A stretch of DNA of 4,510 bases from a virus (lineage: Duplodnaviria > Heunggongvirae > Uroviricota > Caudoviricetes): IMG/VR virus record IMGVR_UViG_2724679238_000010, one strand, 5' to 3'. The notes beneath the pieces are model-generated. The model had not been told where the DNA came from, did not search any database, and saw only the letters and a list, made by a program, of their open reading frames with translations. How positions within the stretch are numbered: the stretch's first letter is position 1; each line of letters opens with the position of its first letter. Position numbers and translations under genes: made by a program. Shown here piece after piece: positions 1-4,436 of this stretch.

Positions 1-365
1 CCGATAGCCGCCGCCAGATGGTTTTTTCCGGTACCAGGTTTTCCGCTGAACGCGAAATTTGTGCATCCGGTCATCAGTTCATCAGCGATGGATTTCGCCT
101 GACTTAACGCGTATCGCTGGCCGTCGTTCTGTACATGGTAATTCGCAAACGAGCATTTACGGTGCAACGGCTGGATGCCTGAGCGATTCAGAATTTTTTC
201 CACCCGCAACTGGCGATTCAGGCGGTTGATCTCCTCGCTACGCTTCTGGCCTTCAGCAAGTTGCCACTCGCGCCACTCCGCTACCGTTCTGAATGGGGCG
301 GTTACATGTGGCGGGGTCAGTCTGCGGATACGTTCCAGAACGCCGCCTGTCGCAATATTTTTCAT
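1..365 (-). CDS. DnaC/IstB-like replicative helicase loader, N-terminal 121 codons only (3' end beyond window start)
   Basis: Manual reverse-strand translation from ATG at 363..365 gives MKNIATGGVLERIRRLTPPHVTAPFRTVAEWREWQLAEGQKRSEEINRLNRQLRVEKILNRSGIQPLHRKCSFANYHVQNDGQRYALSQAKSIADELMTGCTNFAFSGKPGTGKNHLAAAIG, open to position 1. The C-terminal stretch FSGKPGTGKNHLAAAIG is a Walker A P-loop in the context typical of DnaC/IstB loaders. A G-rich SD (rc of 372..378, GGGGG) lies 9 nt upstream. Absent from the ORF track because it has no in-window stop. By synteny this would be the Rac ydaV position. Confidence 0.8.
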   Translation of the reverse strand, partial: MKNIATGGVLERIRRLTPPHVTAPFRTVAEWREWQLAEGQKRSEEINRLNRQLRVEKILNRSGIQPLHRKCSFANYHVQNDGQRYALSQAKSIADELMTGCTNFAFSGKPGTGKNHLAAAI

Positions 366-371
366 GGTTCG

Positions 372-1349
372 TTACCCCCTGAACCCCGGAGGAATTTCGG
401 TGTCCGGTTCAGAAATATGATTCACACAACGCTGTACAGGTGAACGCCCCAGGCGGATGACCAGTTCGTCCCATTTTTCGCGGAGCTTTGACGGGCTCAT
501 GATGTTTTTTACCCAGAATGGATCCCGCTGTACCCGCCCAAACATTTCGCAAATTTGTCTGTGAGTTCTGCCATCCAGCATCCGCATTGTGCGCACGTCA
601 TTGGCCCACGCGGTCCAGTTTGGTTCTTTCGGTCGCGTGATCTCGCCATCATCGCTGGCCGCCTGCTCGTAAAGACTCACGATTCGTCCCCAGATCCACT
701 GTGCGCACGCCAAATCTTCCTGACTTCCCCACTGGCGTTTTTTCGCACTGAACACAACCGCATCAGGGTGTCGGGTTAAAAAATCCTGTTCAGCCGTCTG
801 CGGGTCCGGTTGCGAAGCGTCCGGACAAGAAGATCTTTTATCTGATGGATCAGATTTTAATACTGACGGATCGGGGTCAATCATCGCCCCCCTAACCGAC
901 CGTTTTTTATCAACGGTTGATCCATCAAAATTTGACGGGTCAACCGTTGAGGGGGCAATATTTGACGGGTCAACCGTTGAGGGGTCAATATTTGACGGGT
1001 CATTTTTGGCCGGGCTAATTTTTCTTTTCGGTTTATATGCCTCTCGCGCCGCCGCTGCTGCAGCTTCGAGTTTTTCCACATTAAGCCGGTAGATATTGCT
1101 TACGTTACGTCCGCCAACCTTACGCTCTTCCTTTGTCAGCCAGCCGCTCTTTTCCAGTTCCGCTATCGCCGCTTTAACCGTTGATTCACTCTTTGCCCCA
1201 ATCTGACGACGAATGGTCTCTACTGCAGGCCATGACACACCTTCATCATTGCTGTAGTCTGCAAGACGAGCCATCACTGCCACCCTGGATAAGATCATGC
1301 CGGTGAAGGCACACCCTTCCCAGACAAGACCATGAAGCTTGCTGCTCAT
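372..1349 (-). CDS. phage replication initiation protein, lambda O-like (N-terminal winged-HTH domain, repeat-encoded linker, C-terminal domain)
   Basis: 325-aa ORF with ATG at 1347..1349 and a GGGG SD-like run 6 nt upstream. The N-terminal segment (GMILSRVAVMARLADYSNDEGVSWPAVETIRRQIGAKSESTVKAAIAELEKSGWLTKEE) looks like the winged-HTH of phage replication initiators. The middle is a 10-aa peptide repeat (DPSNIDPSTV / DPSNIAPSTV / DPSNFDGSTV) encoded by 30-bp DNA iterons. It lies immediately upstream of the DnaC-like loader gene. Family assignment is from recalled features, not a search. Confidence 0.85.
   Translation of the reverse strand: MSSKLHGLVWEGCAFTGMILSRVAVMARLADYSNDEGVSWPAVETIRRQIGAKSESTVKAAIAELEKSGWLTKEERKVGGRNVSNIYRLNVEKLEAAAAAAREAYKPKRKISPAKNDPSNIDPSTVDPSNIAPSTVDPSNFDGSTVDKKRSVRGAMIDPDPSVLKSDPSDKRSSCPDASQPDPQTAEQDFLTRHPDAVVFSAKKRQWGSQEDLACAQWIWGRIVSLYEQAASDDGEITRPKEPNWTAWANDVRTMRMLDGRTHRQICEMFGRVQRDPFWVKNIMSPSKLREKWDELVIRLGRSPVQRCVNHISEPDTEIPPGFRG
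909..1003. repeat. putative replication origin iterons inside the initiator gene: 30-bp tandem direct repeats with internal dyads
   Basis: Seen directly: 927..956 aaaatttgacgggtcaaccgttgagggggc; 957..986 aatatttgacgggtcaaccgttgaggggtc (28/30 identical); 987..1002 aatatttgacgggtca (truncated third copy). Each unit holds overlapping palindromes TTGAC-GG-GTCAA and TCAAC-C-GTTGA. An inverted relative, TCAACGGTTGA, sits at 910..920. A more AT-rich stretch follows at 1003..1040. The layout resembles lambda ori inside gene O. Confidence 0.6.
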
Positions 1350-1372: not shown

Positions 1373-1798
1373 TTAGTGCATCACCACGGCATTTCCTGCC
1401 GGGCCACCGCGATTAATCTGGTTGAAACCAGCAATTGCCACCGCAATAAAATCATCTGCATCCCTCACCAGCCGCTCCCGCGTCTCCAGCAGCTCCCGAA
1501 AATAGGCTGAACTGTGACTGCGCATTCGGGCCACCAGCAGAGGCGGCATTGCCTTTTCGATCGCTGGTAACAACGCCTGAATTTTTTTAACCGCATCAGG
1601 GGTGTCTTTCTCCACCCAGCGGAAAATTTTCTGAGTATTGCGAGCCAGGGCTTCAGGATGGCTGTCGTCATATAATTCCGGGAACGTCATACCCAGCTCA
1701 AAATAAGCCCGGGTTATTTCAGCCGCCGGAACTTTTTCACCGTCCGGATGCGCCCAGGCATTCATCACCATGCGGATGTGCTCATGCTTGATTATCAT
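1373..1798 (-). CDS. ydaT: YdaT-like protein (CII-like regulator, toxic on overexpression in Rac-type prophages)
   Basis: 141-aa ORF, ATG at 1796..1798, with AGGAG SD (rc of 1807..1811) 8 nt upstream. The protein (MIIKHEHIRMVMNAWAHPDGEKVPAAEITRAYFELGMTFPELYDDSHPEALARNTQKIF...) matches my recollection of the E. coli YdaT family. It sits directly downstream of the cro-like gene. Symbol is from recalled similarity plus synteny. Confidence 0.8.
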   Translation of the reverse strand: MIIKHEHIRMVMNAWAHPDGEKVPAAEITRAYFELGMTFPELYDDSHPEALARNTQKIFRWVEKDTPDAVKKIQALLPAIEKAMPPLLVARMRSHSSAYFRELLETRERLVRDADDFIAVAIAGFNQINRGGPAGNAVVMH

Positions 1799-2063
1799 GA
1801 ATCAAGCTCCTGGAAAGTGGTTGTGTTAACGTTTTGGTATCTTCCAGCTCGGGCCAAATATTCATCCAATCAAAAGGCCTTAGTTGCTGACGTGTAACTT
1901 CACCATTACTGGCTCGCTCAATAAGGACACATAACGATGCCCCTAACACTTGACCTTTACTCAATGCCTTTCTTAGATAACCGATGCTAGTACCACACTC
2001 ACATGCAAACATACGCTGTTCATCTGACGAAAGAGAATTGAGAAATATTCTTAATTCTTCCAT
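1782..2063 (-). CDS. ydaS: YdaS-like Cro-type HTH transcriptional regulator
   Basis: 93-aa ORF, ATG at 2061..2063, with AAGGAG SD (rc of 2069..2074) 5 nt upstream. The segment GTSIGYLRKALSKGQVLGASLCVLIERASNGEVTRQQLRPFDW fits the YdaS/Cro-like family pattern (ERA..GEV...LRP.DW). It is the first gene of the operon divergent from the repressor and overlaps ydaT by 17 nt. Confidence 0.8.
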   Translation of the reverse strand: MEELRIFLNSLSSDEQRMFACECGTSIGYLRKALSKGQVLGASLCVLIERASNGEVTRQQLRPFDWMNIWPELEDTKTLTQPLSRSLIHDNQA

Positions 2064-2081: not shown

Positions 2082-2172
2082 TACGGTCAAGAATACCCAC
2101 AGGTAAACAAAAGTCAATACCTATGGGTTGTTTACCTTGCGGTAATCGCATCTATTATTTACCTATGGACAA
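2082..2172. promoter_or_regulatory. divergent promoter/operator region between the cro-like gene and the repressor gene
   Basis: Three copies of a dyad motif: O1 2093..2106 ATACCCACAGGTAA; O2 2117..2130 ATACCTATGGGTTG; O3 2159..2172 TTACCTATGGACAA. O1 and O2 are 24 bp centre to centre. Leftward promoter candidate: -35 TTGACT (rc of 2112..2117), 16-bp spacer, -10 TATTCT (rc of 2090..2095). Rightward promoter candidate: -35 TTTACC 2131..2136, 16-bp spacer, -10 TATTAT 2153..2158, ending 6 nt before ATG 2165. Confidence 0.5.
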
Positions 2173-2584
2173 ATATGAATTTAGACGACAGCAACTCATC
2201 AAAATTCGTGATGAGAAATGCGATGGTAAAGCGGTTAACGTGGCCAGAAAGATCGGTCGCGAGCCTTCTTATGTATCAAGAATGTTGTACCCAGAGGGGA
2301 AAAAAGGAAAAAAACGGATCGCTGATGATATGGTGGAGATTATCGAAGAGTCCTTTGGGTTACCCCGGGGATGGATGGATGGTATCGTTTCATCATCAAC
2401 GAACACAGCCTCCAATTATGAAACAAGGGTTCTAACGCCACGACAACGTATTTTTTTAGATCTCTTAGACGAACTGCCAGAAAGTGAAACGGATAACTTA
2501 TTAAAAACTCTTGAAGAGAAAAAACAGTATTACAATATGATCTACGAAGAAATCCGTAAAAAGAAAGCACAAAACGCGTCATAA
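2165..2584 (+). CDS. racR: prophage repressor, RacR-like (possibly a leaderless transcript); alternative start at 2123
   Basis: 139 aa from ATG 2165 (MDKYEFRRQQLIKIRDEKCDGKAVNVARKIGREPSYVSRMLYPEGKKGKKRIADDMVEIIEESFGLPRGWMD...). A helix-turn-helix-like segment sits near the N-terminus. The gene is divergent from the ydaS-ydaT pair, which is the position of racR in Rac. No SD precedes either candidate ATG, and the predicted -10 lies immediately upstream of 2165. Symbol rests on synteny plus a recalled, unverified resemblance. Confidence 0.65.
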   Translation: MDKYEFRRQQLIKIRDEKCDGKAVNVARKIGREPSYVSRMLYPEGKKGKKRIADDMVEIIEESFGLPRGWMDGIVSSSTNTASNYETRVLTPRQRIFLDLLDELPESETDNLLKTLEEKKQYYNMIYEEIRKKKAQNAS

Positions 2585-2625: not shown

Positions 2626-2664
2626 TTACCCATAGGTATTTACTTTTTGAATACCTATGGGTAT
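2626..2664. promoter_or_regulatory. operator-like dyad pair 3' of the repressor gene (OL analogue); may also form a hairpin
   Basis: 2626..2639 TTACCCATAGGTAT and 2651..2664 ATACCTATGGGTAT, 25 bp centre to centre, the same motif as in the divergent promoter region. ACCCATAGGTAT and ATACCTATGGGT are reverse complements, giving a 12-bp stem with an 11-nt loop followed by a T-rich tract (atcctttatttc). Confidence 0.45.
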
Positions 2665-2846
2665 CCTTTATTTCATACCAACCCTCCCCGCCCCACAGAA
2701 CGCAGGGCAATACTTTGAGTTACCAGGCAGTGGTCAGGGGTTAAGTAGCCAGCCCGAGGCGTAAGAACATGACGGCAGGGTTCAACTTTAACTATGCAGC
2801 AGGTTTTTGTTCCGCTACCCCGGCGTTAAGGGGAAATGAGGTCAGC

Positions 2847-2999
2847 ATGGATACTATCGATCTTGGCAACAACGAATCTCTGGTGTGCGGCGTGTTCCCA
2901 AACCAAGACGGTACGTTCACCGCAATGACGTATACCAAAAGCAAAACGCTTAAAACCGAATCTGGCGCGCGTCGCTGGTTAGCCAGAAACACTGACTGA
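2847..2999 (+). CDS. small prophage protein, about 50 aa (YdaF/YdfA-like small protein family suspected); alternative start at 2769
   Basis: ATG at 2847 with GAGG (2837..2840) 6 nt upstream. Protein MDTIDLGNNESLVCGVFPNQDGTFTAMTYTKSKTLKTESGARRWLARNTD. Size and position next to the repressor match the small ydaF/ydfA-type genes of Rac/Qin-like prophages. Family assignment is from memory and is tentative. Confidence 0.5.
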   Translation: MDTIDLGNNESLVCGVFPNQDGTFTAMTYTKSKTLKTESGARRWLARNTD

Positions 3000-3376
3000 T
3001 GAGGCTGACGATGGAATTTAAAGATTTACCGTCTGATGTACAGAAAACAGCAGCTCATACATTGCATTCTGTGCTGCGAGAAATCGGGAAAGATATTGCA
3101 AGCGAGCCAGCAAAAGATCTGGCCCGGAAAATCAAGACCGCTTTCGTTGAGCTTTATAATGTTGGCACTGACTCTGAAACTGTCGAGACCAAGACCGTAA
3201 GTTCACCAATATTCTCACTTGAGCCAGGCGTATTATCAGGTGAAATATGCACCGAGATTTCCAGCGAACTGCTTCCGGTAATACGAGAAACAATTTGCCG
3301 TCGCGGTTTGGATGGAAGTTACGATCATGACGTCCTGCAAGTTCTCAGGACAATGGTGACTTCACTGGGGATTTGA
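2999..3376 (+). CDS. hypothetical prophage early protein (125 aa; alternative start 3011 gives 121 aa)
   Basis: ATG 2999 overlaps the TGA stop of the upstream gene by 1 nt (TGATG), suggesting translational coupling. ATG 3011 has its own GAGG SD (3001..3004) 6 nt upstream. No recognisable domain by eye. Confidence 0.55.
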   Translation: MRLTMEFKDLPSDVQKTAAHTLHSVLREIGKDIASEPAKDLARKIKTAFVELYNVGTDSETVETKTVSSPIFSLEPGVLSGEICTEISSELLPVIRETICRRGLDGSYDHDVLQVLRTMVTSLGI

Positions 3377-3545
3377 TCCCTGCGTCCTCTAACCTTTTGA
3401 TATAGCGGTCCTCCAAGAAGCGGTAAATTTTGTCGAAATCATCTTTCCCCTCTGATTTATTCAGAGGATTACAGGACCCGTAAGTAGCGGCATACATTTC
3501 AACCGTTTTATCAAAAATATAAGAGACAAATTCTTCTTTAGTCAT
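3345..3545 (-). CDS. hypothetical small protein, 66 aa, charged and soluble-looking
   Basis: ATG at 3543..3545 (rc) with AAGAAGGA SD (rc of 3553..3560) 7 nt upstream. Protein MTKEEFVSYIFDKTVEMYAATYGSCNPLNKSEGKDDFDKIYRFLEDRYIKRLEDAGIKSPVKSPLS. The track ORF extends to a GTG at 3630..3632, but that start lacks an SD. The 3' end overlaps the convergent gene 2999..3376 by 32 bp. Confidence 0.45.
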   Translation of the reverse strand: MTKEEFVSYIFDKTVEMYAATYGSCNPLNKSEGKDDFDKIYRFLEDRYIKRLEDAGIKSPVKSPLS

Positions 3546-3882
3546 ATAGATTTCCTTCTTGGTTATTCGGGATAAGAAGGATACCACCTCGCCTGACGTG
3601 GTTAAAAGCAGGCACACAACACGAAAGCGCACGGCGAAGTTCGTCTCACTGTACGGTGTCGTTAAATTTAATTCGACCGTGCGCTTCCGGTTGTGGCAAC
3701 CCGCGAAATGGCGCGGCGGTAAGTATGGCGGGGTTATTCCTTCCCCGTTGAGGACACCGGGTTGTCAGGTTGACCATACGCTTAAGTGACAACCCCGCTG
3801 CAACGCCCTATGTTATCAATTTTCTGGTGACGTTTGGCGGTATCAGTTTTACTCCGTGACTGCTCTGCCGCCCTTTTTAAAG

Positions 3883-4047: not shown

Positions 4048-4236
4048 ATGGAAACGTTATTACCAAACGTTAATACGTCTGAAGGTTGTTTTGAAATTGG
4101 TGTCAGAATCAGTAACTCTGCATTTACTGAAGATGCCATTAACAAGAGAAAACACGAACGGGAGTTATTAAATAAAATATGCATTCTTTCAATGCTGGCA
4201 CGTTTACGCCCGATGCAAAAAGGATGCTGGCAATGA
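4048..4236 (+). CDS. hypothetical small protein, 62 aa
   Basis: ATG 4048 with GAGGA SD (4036..4040) 7 nt upstream. Protein METLLPNVNTSEGCFEIGVRISNSAFTEDAINKRKHERELLNKICILSMLARLRPMQKGCWQ. Its stop TGA (4234..4236) overlaps an in-frame ATG (4233..4235) of the next ORF. The track ORF starts at a GTG (3943) lying inside the inverted-repeat region, which I consider non-coding. Confidence 0.4.
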   Translation: METLLPNVNTSEGCFEIGVRISNSAFTEDAINKRKHERELLNKICILSMLARLRPMQKGCWQ

Positions 4237-4436
4237 ATACAGCAATTGCTCTCACTCTGATAGTTTTTCTTAATACGGGCGAGCCTGTTGACCCGGTTAT
4301 TGACATTTACGGTTCAATGAAAGAATGCACGGCTGCCGCAGCGGAACAGAAAACTCCCGGTAACTGTTATCCGGTCGATAAAGTTATTCATATGGACAAT
4401 AACGAAATCCCGGCAGGACTTAAAACAGCACCGTAA
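4179..4436 (+). CDS. hypothetical small protein with signal-peptide-like or membrane-anchor N-terminus (85 aa; alternative start 4233 gives 67 aa)
   Basis: ORF MHSFNAGTFTPDAKRMLAMNTAIALTLIVFLNTGEPVDPVIDIYGSMKECTAAAAEQKTPGNCYPVDKVIHMDNNEIPAGLKTAP. Basic residues (KR) precede a hydrophobic stretch (AIALTLIVFL), followed by a polar region with two Cys. Start is ambiguous: ATG 4179 has only a distant GGAG; ATG 4233 has AAAAAGG 9 nt upstream and forms an ATGA overlap with the preceding ORF. Confidence 0.45.
   Translation: MHSFNAGTFTPDAKRMLAMNTAIALTLIVFLNTGEPVDPVIDIYGSMKECTAAAAEQKTPGNCYPVDKVIHMDNNEIPAGLKTAP

Follow-up and report, generated by a model that had tools for sequence, protein, structure and literature searches.

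When a prophage repressor gene faces two small regulatory genes, the pair may be read as a toxic module held in check by the repressor or as part of the phage decision between lysis and lysogeny. This question arises for the gene pair at positions 1373-2063 of a 4,510-nt stretch of tailed-phage DNA (the whole stretch is termed the window below). The sequence-only reading described the pair as YdaS-like and YdaT-like genes, pointed to the toxicity reported for such a pair upon derepression in Rac-type prophages, and proposed that its presence explains why the repressor may be essential in the host. The analysis below leads to a different emphasis: the region is very probably the right half of the immunity switch of a lambdoid prophage located next to ompW, in which the pair would serve as Cro and a CII-like YdaT. 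An NCBI genome contig that carries a full lambdoid prophage beside ompW matches the window at 99.9% identity.

Two overlapping genes divergent from the repressor gene

The genes concerned are as follows.

1373-1798, minus strand: ydaT, 141 amino acids (aa), assigned by homology as a CII-type transcription activator of the CP-933P subtype, with a POU-like HTH domain and a C-terminal tetramerisation helix
1782-2063, minus strand: cro-like gene (termed ydaS-like in the sequence-only reading), 93 aa, first gene of a rightward PR-type operon
1782-1798, minus strand: 17-nt overlap between the cro stop codon and the ydaT start codon, from the ORF listing and the sequence
2165-2584, plus strand: immunity repressor gene, 139 aa, with a predicted mEp043 cI-type N-terminal DNA-binding domain and a short C-terminal helical hairpin

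The ORF listing confirms that the two minus-strand ORFs share the 17 nt at 1782-1798 and are divergent from the plus-strand repressor ORF. Judged from homology, both ORFs are real genes. The RefSeq annotation of Escherichia coli 720632 contains the same two genes with the same 17-nt overlap, which is also found in phage 813R8 (with a DicC-type Cro) and Klebsiella phage ST405; Tritos, Evi and 689R5 have a shorter overlap of 4 nt, and in Rac the genes are separated by a 22-nt gap. As the length of the overlap or gap varies with the upstream cassette, a special coupling or regulatory role of the 17-nt overlap is rejected. TGA is present in all three frames near the ydaT ATG (at -6, +1 and +14). 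Various cro cassettes recombined in front of the ydaT module would end in this region, which includes the YdaT box (see below), and the reading frame of the incoming cassette would determine an overlap of 0, 4 or 17 nt. The overlap length would then be a by-product of a joint at the YdaT box.

YdaT is a CII equivalent of the CP-933P subtype

Membership of the 141-aa protein in the YdaT family is well supported: it scores 38.9 bits against PF06254 (cut-off 21) and matches phrog_163, 'CII-like transcriptional activator', with an E-value of 1e-43. A search of NCBIfam gave no family for this protein or for the Cro-like protein. Homology to solved YdaT structures extends over the full length, including recognition helix alpha3 and the C-terminal tetramerisation helix; residues 3-141 align with PDB 3c4r (E 1.5e-87, ~93% identity) and with 8bt1, the YdaT of CP-933P (E 6e-79, ~83% identity). 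The recognition-helix stretch SHPEALARNTQKIFRW is identical between the present protein and 8bt1 and contains an R-W pair. Identity to the Rac YdaT of E. coli K-12 is 33%, and in this alignment the pair (R60/W61) corresponds to Rac R57/W58 of helix alpha3. A YdaT homologue is a DNA-binding tetramer with a defined operator (PMC9986795). The gene is located between a cro-type gene and a replication initiator gene. By homology, the 141-aa protein is clearly YdaT, the equivalent of CII.

The 93-aa protein is a Cro of the mEp043 type

A close relative of the 93-aa protein is mEp043 Cro (E 4e-40, 73% identity over residues 1-73), and the protein also matches phrog_35 (E 1e-22). Among solved structures it matches PDB 8c7k/8co2 (E 1e-10, ~36% identity), which were identified as CP-933P YdaS via the sequence of a ydaS primer given in the PMC8630535 supplement; a full-text literature search for the codes 8C7K/8CO2 returned chemistry papers only. 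Identity to the YdaS-type Cro of phage Evi is 36%, and the match to K-12 YdaS is local, covering 28 residues only. The description of this protein as YdaS-like holds in part: homology to CP-933P YdaS supports it, but the score against the YdaS family PF15943 (COG4197) is 25.8 bits (E 9e-6), which is under the cut-off of 30. For comparison, mEp043 Cro scores 26.0, Evi Cro 46.2 and K-12 YdaS 107.7 bits.

The gene is the first in the operon divergent from the repressor gene, and predicted operators are located in the shared intergenic region. CP-933P YdaS produces footprints on intergenic operators and represses both PR and PRM (PMC8630535). By its relationships, the 93-aa protein is the Cro of the mEp043 immunity type. 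The homologies of both proteins support the view, already put forward in the sequence-only reading, of a Cro-like/CII-like regulatory pair opposite the repressor.

A short repressor flanked by two operator sets

The repressor matches phrog_5736 (E 1e-69) and is 65% identical to mEp043 cI over residues 1-86, and its C-terminal part resembles Tritos CI and, weakly, DicA (24 bits). The ORF listing gives a 153-aa form starting at 2123, which is rejected in favour of ATG 2165, because 2123 is upstream of the PRM-type promoter candidate and all homologues (PHROG, RefSeq and mEp043 cI) begin with MDKYE. Relatives of 221-242 aa carry PF00717, and mEp043 cI carries Peptidase_S24; a Pfam search gave no S24 peptidase domain match in the 139-aa protein. 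BLASTP comparison with RacR gave no meaningful alignment (E 2.3), and a sequence search of the PDB gave no significant relatives. An AlphaFold2 model (pLDDT 80.6) used in a fold search matched generic XRE-type HTH proteins, the best being the Rep protein of phage SPC32H (5d50, E 1e-3).

The following sites flank the repressor gene.

2094-2144, strand not assigned: three OR operators of the form TACC-N4-GGTA, at 2094-2105, 2118-2129 (one mismatch) and 2133-2144
2160-2171, strand not assigned: degenerate fourth OR-side copy, outside the 2094-2144 span
2090-2117, minus strand: PR-type promoter candidate TTGACT-16-TATTCT for cro-ydaT-O-dnaC (consensus scan, 9/12 matches)
2131-2158, plus strand: PRM-type promoter candidate TTTACC-16-TATTAT (consensus scan)
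2627-2667, plus strand: two OL operators, at 2627-2638 and 2652-2663, with PL-type promoter candidate TTTACT-17-TATCCT

TACC-N4-GGTA has six matches in the window, a total equalled in none of 200 shuffles, and five sites cluster at the two ends of the repressor gene (three at OR and two at OL). The three-site OR layout is kept in the cI-cro intergenic region of mEp043 and in E. coli 720632. The PR hexamers abut or overlap operators and their position is kept in mEp043; we infer that 2090-2117 functions as PR. The PL hexamers are consensus matches, and the PL arrangement is a copy of PR/OR1-OR2 (83-95% alike), with an equivalent OL operator pair upstream of the N gene in mEp043. As judged from these motifs, the locus has a lambda-type switch layout, with operator sets between the repressor and cro genes and beyond the repressor gene.

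The two OL operators together make a 16-bp hairpin with a T-rich run after it, which suggests that this site could function also as a terminator of the repressor gene. The PRM -10 hexamer ends 6 nt 5' of ATG 2165, and no Shine-Dalgarno sequence precedes this ATG. Such proximity of the -10 hexamer to the ATG predicts a leaderless repressor mRNA, on the basis of consensus matches and by analogy with lambda cI and paaR2, whose messages are leaderless (PMC8630535).

The YdaT box and a candidate reverse promoter

Three features are located around the cro/ydaT junction and within cro.

1788-1805, strand not assigned: YdaT box, TTGATT-N6-AATCAA, a perfect inverted repeat whose spacer contains the ydaT ATG (1798-1796)
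1807-1811, minus strand: Shine-Dalgarno sequence AGGAG of ydaT, 8 nt 5' of the ATG and within the cro coding region (sequence reading)
1950-1978, plus strand: low-confidence candidate for a YdaT-dependent reverse (PRE-like) promoter, TTGACC-17-TTAGAT, inside cro

A pattern search of the window for the box gave a single exact match, at 1788-1805. At least one match with up to two mismatches occurs in 65 of 200 shuffles of a window of the same size, so the weight of the assignment rests on position and literature, not on the count. The sequence is that of the DNase-footprinted OM site of CP-933P YdaT (PMC9986795), and the Rac YdaT box, ATGATTCATGAAAATCAA, has the same geometry and is needed for 29-fold activation of the reverse promoter PracR4 (PMC11879457). 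Rac and CP-933P YdaT cross-activate, the specificity for the box being common to YdaT homologues (PMC11879457). The box is kept at the cro/ydaT junction in the eight loci compared. A search with up to three mismatches gave none of the weaker flanking YdaT sites known as OL and OR of CP-933P.

The assignment of 1950-1978 as a YdaT-dependent PRE-like promoter is speculative. Its -35-like hexamer is antisense to cro, near the codon position of the PracR4 -35 hexamer TTGACG in Rac (ydaS codon 40); its -10 hexamer is weak, and the candidate is absent from mEp043 cro. Standard sigma-70 scans of the plus strand within cro gave no strong or convincing PRE-like match and did not report TTGACC-17-TTAGAT. 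The effect of YdaT on repressor expression has been reported differently for Rac and CP-933P (PMC11879457).

The ydaT module joins to different immunity cassettes

The module is present in 822 of 5426 complete E. coli genomes; of the 824 complete E. coli genomes that match the cassette, 816 have it at 95% identity or more. The same ydaT module is found in the isolated phages Tritos, Evi and the vB_Eco series. BLAST homology boundaries are located at ~1803-1810 and ~2667-2695, and in a comparison of eight ydaT loci the homologous region starts at the YdaT box. The Cro types paired with ydaT include the P22_Cro, YdaS, HTH_17 and mEp043 types. Combination of ydaT with different Cro types argues against a cognate two-gene unit, and together with the start of homology at the box it suggests that the pair is a mosaic junction and not a toxin-antitoxin unit.

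Flanking genes and the proposed switch

The genes downstream of ydaT and on the far side of the repressor gene are as follows.

372-1349, minus strand: O-like replication initiator gene, downstream of ydaT (phrog_391, E 5e-115; HTH_36)
3-365, minus strand: 5' part of a dnaC-like helicase-loader gene, ydaV-like (PRK12377 of NCBIfam, E 1e-71; DnaC, E 3e-36; phrog_50)
3822-3873, plus strand: DicF sRNA of the leftward (PL-side) operon (Rfam RF00039, 76.7 bits against a gathering score of 48)
4048-4436, plus strand: dicB (4048-4236, division inhibitor) and ydfD (4233-4436, lysis protein), downstream of PL

The O-like gene contains iteron-like 15/30-nt tandem repeats at 925-1002, and in near-identical prophages its product ranges in length between 310 and 325 aa. 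Within the window, the rightward operon can be followed as far as the dnaC-like gene. Assignment of dicB and ydfD is based on a PF07358 match, on PF05358 (DicB) and DUF1482 called in 99%-identical loci, and on RefSeq names. The host prophage still has int, xis, replication genes, Q and a holin, and the gene order cI/cro/ydaT/O matches cI/cro/cII/O of lambda.

In the switch proposed here, the 139-aa repressor would bind TACC-N4-GGTA at OR and OL and thereby shut PR and PL. From its predicted position, the PR-type promoter would drive the cro-like, ydaT, O-like and dnaC-like genes, and the PL-type promoter would likewise drive a DUF1391 gene, DicF, dicB, ydfD and further genes. The 93-aa Cro is expected to bind the operators of the repressor and to lower repressor synthesis, as known for Cro-like repression by homologues. 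YdaT, as a tetramer with POU-like HTH domains, would bind the box spanning its own start codon, binding of this kind being known for homologues. It is further expected to turn on a leftward promoter antisense inside cro; such activation is known for homologues, and the location is a prediction. The resulting leftward transcription would provide more repressor during the establishment of lysogeny.

Toxic pair, toxin-antitoxin module or remnant?

Loss of the repressor might instead allow YdaT or Cro to misregulate host genes, leading to filamentation and death and making the repressor essential, as in Rac. In K-12, racR can be deleted only in the absence of ydaST, and Rac YdaT makes cells filament and die; growth defects also follow when CP-933P YdaS and PaaR2 are over-expressed for long periods (PMC8630535), and the common box specificity of YdaT homologues also counts for this reading. 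The present locus, however, is not of the Rac type: its repressor is unlike RacR and its YdaT is of the CP-933P subtype (~83% identity, against 33% to Rac). No toxicity was detected for CP-933P YdaT (PMC8630535), which also fails to activate the host rcsA promoter, a route tied to the phenotypes of Rac YdaT (PMC11879457). Frameshifted forms of the repressor are present in databases, although these may be sequencing errors. In addition, the same repressor probably controls DicF, DicB and YdfD; as its operators also front this operon, lethality on derepression need not stem from the pair, and these genes together with the PR-driven replication genes would be sufficient alternative causes. Host toxicity of this kind is very unlikely here, and the claim that the pair is toxic and accounts for repressor essentiality, which was borrowed from Rac, is left unsupported. 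A type II toxin-antitoxin pair, with YdaS as antitoxin and YdaT as toxin, is extremely improbable. The genes are small, adjacent and overlapping, and database names point that way (YdaS_toxin and YdaT_toxin in Pfam; 'toxin YdaT family protein' in RefSeq), but several Cro types precede ydaT, the break in homology falls exactly at the junction of the two genes, YdaT binds a defined operator as a tetramer, the gene order is that of lambda, and the authors of the CP-933P study, who found YdaT non-toxic, rejected this reading (PMC8630535).

Many lambdoid prophages of E. coli are defective, the repressor is devoid of the S24 domain needed for SOS induction, and the frameshifted repressor variants might be signs of decay, so that the genes could be inert leftovers of a cryptic prophage in which the switch no longer works. 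This is very unlikely, given that no ORF is disrupted, that the box is perfectly palindromic, and that all five operators and the promoter hexamers have been kept. The near-identity of the cassette across E. coli genomes, the functions retained by the host prophage, and the occurrence of the ydaT module in isolated phages also argue against decay. A lambdoid immunity switch with Cro and a CII-like YdaT remains the preferred reading.

Comparison with known systems

CP-933P (Sp12) of E. coli O157:H7, with PaaR2, YdaS and YdaT (PMC8630535, PMC9986795), resembles the present locus in its YdaT, including the identical recognition-helix stretch, in the TTGATT-N6-AATCAA box at the cro/ydaT junction, in a Cro-like HTH protein (36% identity) encoded by the first PR gene, in the divergent orientation of the repressor and cro genes, with sets of operators at both OR and OL, and in an O-like gene after ydaT. 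The repressor of the present locus, in contrast, belongs to another family and is not followed by paaA2-parE2 toxin-antitoxin genes, and CP-933P operators are GTTTAGTAA-type repeats instead of TACC-N4-GGTA. As the sequence upstream of the box is unrelated to CP-933P, the PRE933P promoter itself is not conserved here. Rac of K-12 (RacR/YdaS/YdaT) shares the gene order, the ydaT ATG within the box spacer and a dnaC-like ydaV downstream, and its YdaT activates a reverse promoter inside ydaS, for which the present locus has a candidate only. It differs in an unrelated RacR, in YdaT (33% identity) and YdaS (a 28-residue match), in ydaS and ydaT genes that are 22 nt apart and not overlapping, and in rcsA activation, which Rac YdaT brings about but the CP-933P subtype does not (PMC11879457).

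mEp043, a plaque-forming temperate lambdoid phage, shares the Cro type (73% identity), the cI DNA-binding domain (65%) and the motif, number and spacing of operators at OR (three) and OL (two). Unlike the present repressor, its cI has 228 aa with a Peptidase_S24 self-cleavage domain; a lambda-type cII follows cro where ydaT stands here, and its 76-aa Cro lacks the tail of 20 residues whose coding sequence here runs into the YdaT box. Lambda (CI/Cro/CII; OR, OL, PR, PRM, PL and PRE) is similar in logic, gene order and the predicted leaderless repressor mRNA, in three OR sites, of which one abuts and another overlaps the -35 hexamer of PRM, and in a CII-type activator site at the cro/cII junction. 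There is no sequence similarity to lambda, lambda CII recognizes a direct TTGC repeat and not an inverted repeat as at the YdaT site, and the present repressor has no RecA-dependent cleavage domain. Qin (DicA/DicC/DicF/DicB) has a similar leftward operon with DicF, dicB and ydfD, and the repressor C-terminus is weakly DicA-like, but its DNA-binding domain and Cro are unlike those here.

Implications for lambdoid prophages

The module is an ordinary representative of a widespread and well-studied kind of lysis/lysogeny switch. Current understanding is unchanged by these findings. The value is mainly in annotation: the 'toxin YdaT family protein' here would be a CII-type regulator of a lambdoid switch, and the toxicity described for Rac should not be extended to the CP-933P subtype. 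Three further points are modest and may interest phage biologists. One end of the immunity cassette (cro, OR, repressor and OL; ~860 bp) coincides exactly with the YdaT box, and the length of the cro/ydaT overlap follows from this joint. Repressors of this immunity type have a common DNA-binding domain but come in two forms, SOS-cleavable as in mEp043 and short, without S24, as here.

Among complete E. coli genomes, ~43% contain this YdaT subtype, in as many as five copies each, with essentially the same box. With such a wide distribution, YdaT of one prophage, or of an infecting phage, could conceivably turn on repressor synthesis in resident prophages of unrelated immunity types. It may be proposed, as a tentative and rather doubtful idea, that the box has a dual role as a recombination joint for the exchange of immunity cassettes and as a shared signal that links prophages. 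If this is true, there would be cross-talk between prophages that promotes lysogeny irrespective of immunity type.

Gene organization

The locus is the immunity region of a lambdoid prophage and has a CII of the YdaT type; it belongs to a well-characterised kind and is widespread in E. coli. ORF listing returns the same two minus-strand genes, a cro-like gene and ydaT, that were described by the sequence-only reading, and their 17-nt overlap (1782–1798) had been described accurately. The repressor ORF lies divergently on the plus strand; a start at 2123 was rejected, and ATG 2165 (139 aa) is backed by homology.

3–365, start of a dnaC-like helicase loader gene, downstream of the pair
372–1349, O-like replication initiator, downstream of the pair
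1373–1798, minus strand, ydaT ORF (141 aa)
1782–2063, minus strand, cro-like ORF (93 aa)
3822–3873, DicF sRNA (Rfam, 76.7 bits)
4048–4236, dicB, downstream of a PL-type promoter
4233–4436, ydfD, downstream of the same promoter

The left arm is Qin-like (DicF, dicB and ydfD) and the right arm CP-933P-like. Between the DUF1391 gene and DicF lie two convergent ORFs of unknown function, 3345–3632 (minus) and 2999–3376 (plus), a pair matched by phrog_34441 (probably 66 aa) and phrog_33007 (121–125 aa); segment 2999–3376 has the lowest conservation of the window in complete E. coli genomes. The O-like gene contains 15/30-nt tandem repeats at 925–1002 (TCAATATTTGACGGGTCAACCGTTGAGGGG, 2.6 copies), which are probably origin iterons. 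The O-like protein ranges from 310 to 325 aa among prophages otherwise 99% identical, suggesting that repeat number varies.

YdaT and its binding site

Against the Pfam YdaT profile the 141-aa protein scores 38.9 bits (cut-off 21), and its PHROG match is family 163, "CII-like transcriptional activator". It is ~93% identical to PDB 3c4r and ~83% identical to PDB 8bt1, the YdaT of E. coli O157:H7 prophage CP-933P, with which it shares an identical SHPEALARNTQKIFRW, including the DNA-contacting R-W pair. Identity to YdaT of the K-12 prophage Rac is only 33%, with R60/W61 aligned to Rac R57/W58; Rac YdaT requires R57 and H56 for DNA binding. The CP-933P protein forms a tetramer, has POU-like HTH domains and activates the leftward promoter PRE933P (PMC9986795; PMC8630535); its footprint, 5'-TTGATT-N6-AATCAA-3', is at the end of ydaS (PMC9986795).

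The window has an exact TTGATT-N6-AATCAA at 1788–1805, and the 6-nt spacer holds the ydaT ATG (1798–1796). One exact match in 4.5 kb is not statistically rare, and its weight comes from position and conservation. The box in Rac, ATGATTCATGAAAATCAA, shares this geometry, and without it a reverse promoter inside ydaS does not show its 29-fold activation; Rac and CP-933P YdaT cross-activate (PMC11879457).

As judged from the primers, the CP-933P PRE fragment begins 18 nt from the box, on its ydaT side, and takes in ~100 nt of ydaS (PMC8630535), where the ydaS sequence has no homology to the window. Scans for plus-strand promoters in cro, where a PRE equivalent would be expected, found no strong one. 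TTGACC at 1950–1955, antisense in cro, is only a candidate for a PRE-like −35: it occupies almost the same codon position as the Rac PracR4 −35 (TTGACG), is absent from mEp043 cro, and its −10 is weak. A search of the window for auxiliary YdaT sites, allowing up to 3 mismatches, found none.

The Cro-like protein

The 93-aa product hits PHROG 35 at E 1e-22 and scores 25.8 bits against Pfam YdaS_toxin, under the cut-off of 30. Its best solved relatives, PDB 8c7k and 8co2 (E 1e-10), bear the title "antirepressor protein Cro". The primer with which Jurenas et al. cloned ydaS encodes MTLKEFIKS (PMC8630535), which agrees with the sequence of these entries and identifies them as CP-933P YdaS. K-12 YdaS gives only a local match of 28 residues. 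Among phage proteins it is closest to the Cro of mEp043, a temperate lambdoid phage (73% identity, residues 1–73) that has a lambda-type cII after cro, where the window has ydaT. These relatives mark the protein as a Cro and place it in the broad YdaS/Cro HTH group, as a homologue of a characterised YdaS rather than a Pfam-threshold member.

An exchangeable immunity cassette

The 150 nt upstream of ydaT were aligned for eight loci: the window, E. coli strain 720632, Tritos, 813R8, Evi, 689R5, Klebsiella ST405 and Rac. Similarity starts at the YdaT box, and all upstream sequence is unrelated. In BLAST comparisons of the window with these loci, homology blocks stop at 1803–1810 and restart at 2667–2695, indicating that a cassette of ~860 bp (cro, OR, repressor and OL), limited by the YdaT box on one side and a point just past OL on the other, is an exchangeable unit. 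The Cro proteins paired with ydaT belong to the P22_Cro/DicC, YdaS, HTH_17-like and mEp043 types.

At nearly all loci each of the three frames has a TGA, at −6, +1 and +14 relative to the ydaT ATG. The junction is a 17-nt overlap in the window, 720632, 813R8 and Klebsiella, a 4-nt overlap in Tritos, Evi and 689R5, and a 22-nt gap in Rac. The 17-nt overlap thus results incidentally from the reading frame that the cro cassette has on meeting the box; the 20-residue tail of Cro past the mEp043 homology is read-through into the joint.

Operators and promoters

Between the divergent genes there are three TACC-N4-GGTA sites, at 2094, 2118 (one mismatch) and 2133, and two more come shortly after the repressor stop, at 2627 and 2652; the whole window has six matches, a number reached in 0/200 shuffles. 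The same 3+2 arrangement is found in mEp043 (cI-cro intergenic region and upstream of N) and in 720632. At OL the PR/OR1-OR2 segment is present in nearly identical form. Consensus scans gave two promoter candidates at OR.

2117–2090, minus strand, PR-type, TTGACT-16-TATTCT, under the first two sites
2131–2158, plus strand, PRM-type, TTTACC-16-TATTAT, under the third site

We infer the PR-, PRM- and PL-side assignments from consensus and conservation. The PRM-type −10 ends 6 nt from ATG 2165, and there is no Shine-Dalgarno sequence; a leaderless repressor mRNA is therefore predicted, as in lambda cI and paaR2.

The two OL operators (2627–2663) are mutually complementary and form a 16-bp hairpin followed by TCCTTTATTT; this stretch could double as an intrinsic terminator for the repressor transcript. 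At 2160–2171 a fourth, degenerate operator-like copy with two mismatches (TACCTATGGACA) overlaps the start codon of the repressor and has no counterpart in mEp043.

The repressor

Searches with the 139-aa repressor found no similarity to RacR, no Pfam domain and no PDB sequence relatives. Residues 1–86 are 65% identical to mEp043 cI and common to a large set of 221–242-aa LexA/S24-type repressors; the C-terminal 50 residues resemble Tritos CI and, weakly, DicA. In the AlphaFold2 model (pLDDT 80.6) a disordered linker joins an N-terminal helical domain to a helical hairpin; by fold it best matches the repressor Rep of phage SPC32H, whose solved structure is a complex with the antirepressor Ant. 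Unlike mEp043 cI, the repressor lacks an S24 domain, and RecA-dependent self-cleavage would not be expected.

The N-terminal DNA-binding domain of the repressor (gene at 2165–2584; database proteins P0063–P0152) occurs in two architectures, a short one (135–140 aa, helical C-terminal hairpin; window, E. coli, Salmonella, Serratia and Yersinia) and a long one (221–242 aa, Peptidase_S24 self-cleavage domain; mEp043 cI and many Enterobacterales). These are probably non-cleavable and SOS-cleavable versions of the same immunity specificity. Four database proteins (P0037, P0045, P0048 and P0051) start in an alternative frame (MNLDDSNSS..., ORF 2175–2435) and change to the repressor frame near the A6 and A7 tracts at 2295–2314; they look like products of frameshifted repressor genes. 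If the frameshifts are genuine and not homopolymer sequencing errors, the repressor is dispensable in the genomes concerned.

Toxicity and essentiality

The proposal of a Cro/CII regulatory pair is supported by the YdaT Pfam and PHROG 163 matches and by Cro homology, whereas its "Rac-type" label is not supported, given a repressor unlike RacR and only 33% identity to Rac YdaT. The further proposal, that toxicity of the pair explains repressor essentiality, is not supported. It rests on Rac, whose YdaT causes filamentation and death and in which deletion of racR succeeds only if ydaST is absent (PMC11879457). For the CP-933P subtype, to which the YdaT of the window belongs, no toxic effect of CP-933P YdaT was detected and the toxin-antitoxin reading was rejected by the authors (PMC8630535); CP-933P YdaT activates a YdaT-box promoter and not the rcsA promoter (PMC11879457). 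The OL/PL side of the repressor heads an operon of the DUF1391 gene, DicF, dicB and ydfD, and the replication genes would also be driven from PR. If the repressor is essential, DicF, dicB, ydfD and replication functions would be at least as likely a cause as the cro-ydaT pair.

Distribution

The window and a genome contig from NCBI are 99.9% identical; in the contig, the region is part of a lambdoid prophage that adjoins ompW and has genes for integrase, excisionase, exonuclease, dicB, ydfD, replication, hok, rusA, Q and holin. Of 5426 complete E. coli genomes, 822 have the immunity cassette (816 at ≥95% identity) and 2311 have the ydaT subtype, so the module is very common. The value of the locus beyond annotation correction is low. 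Copies of the ydaT subtype, up to five in a single genome, are all expected to recognise the same box, giving scope for cross-talk among prophages that differ in immunity.
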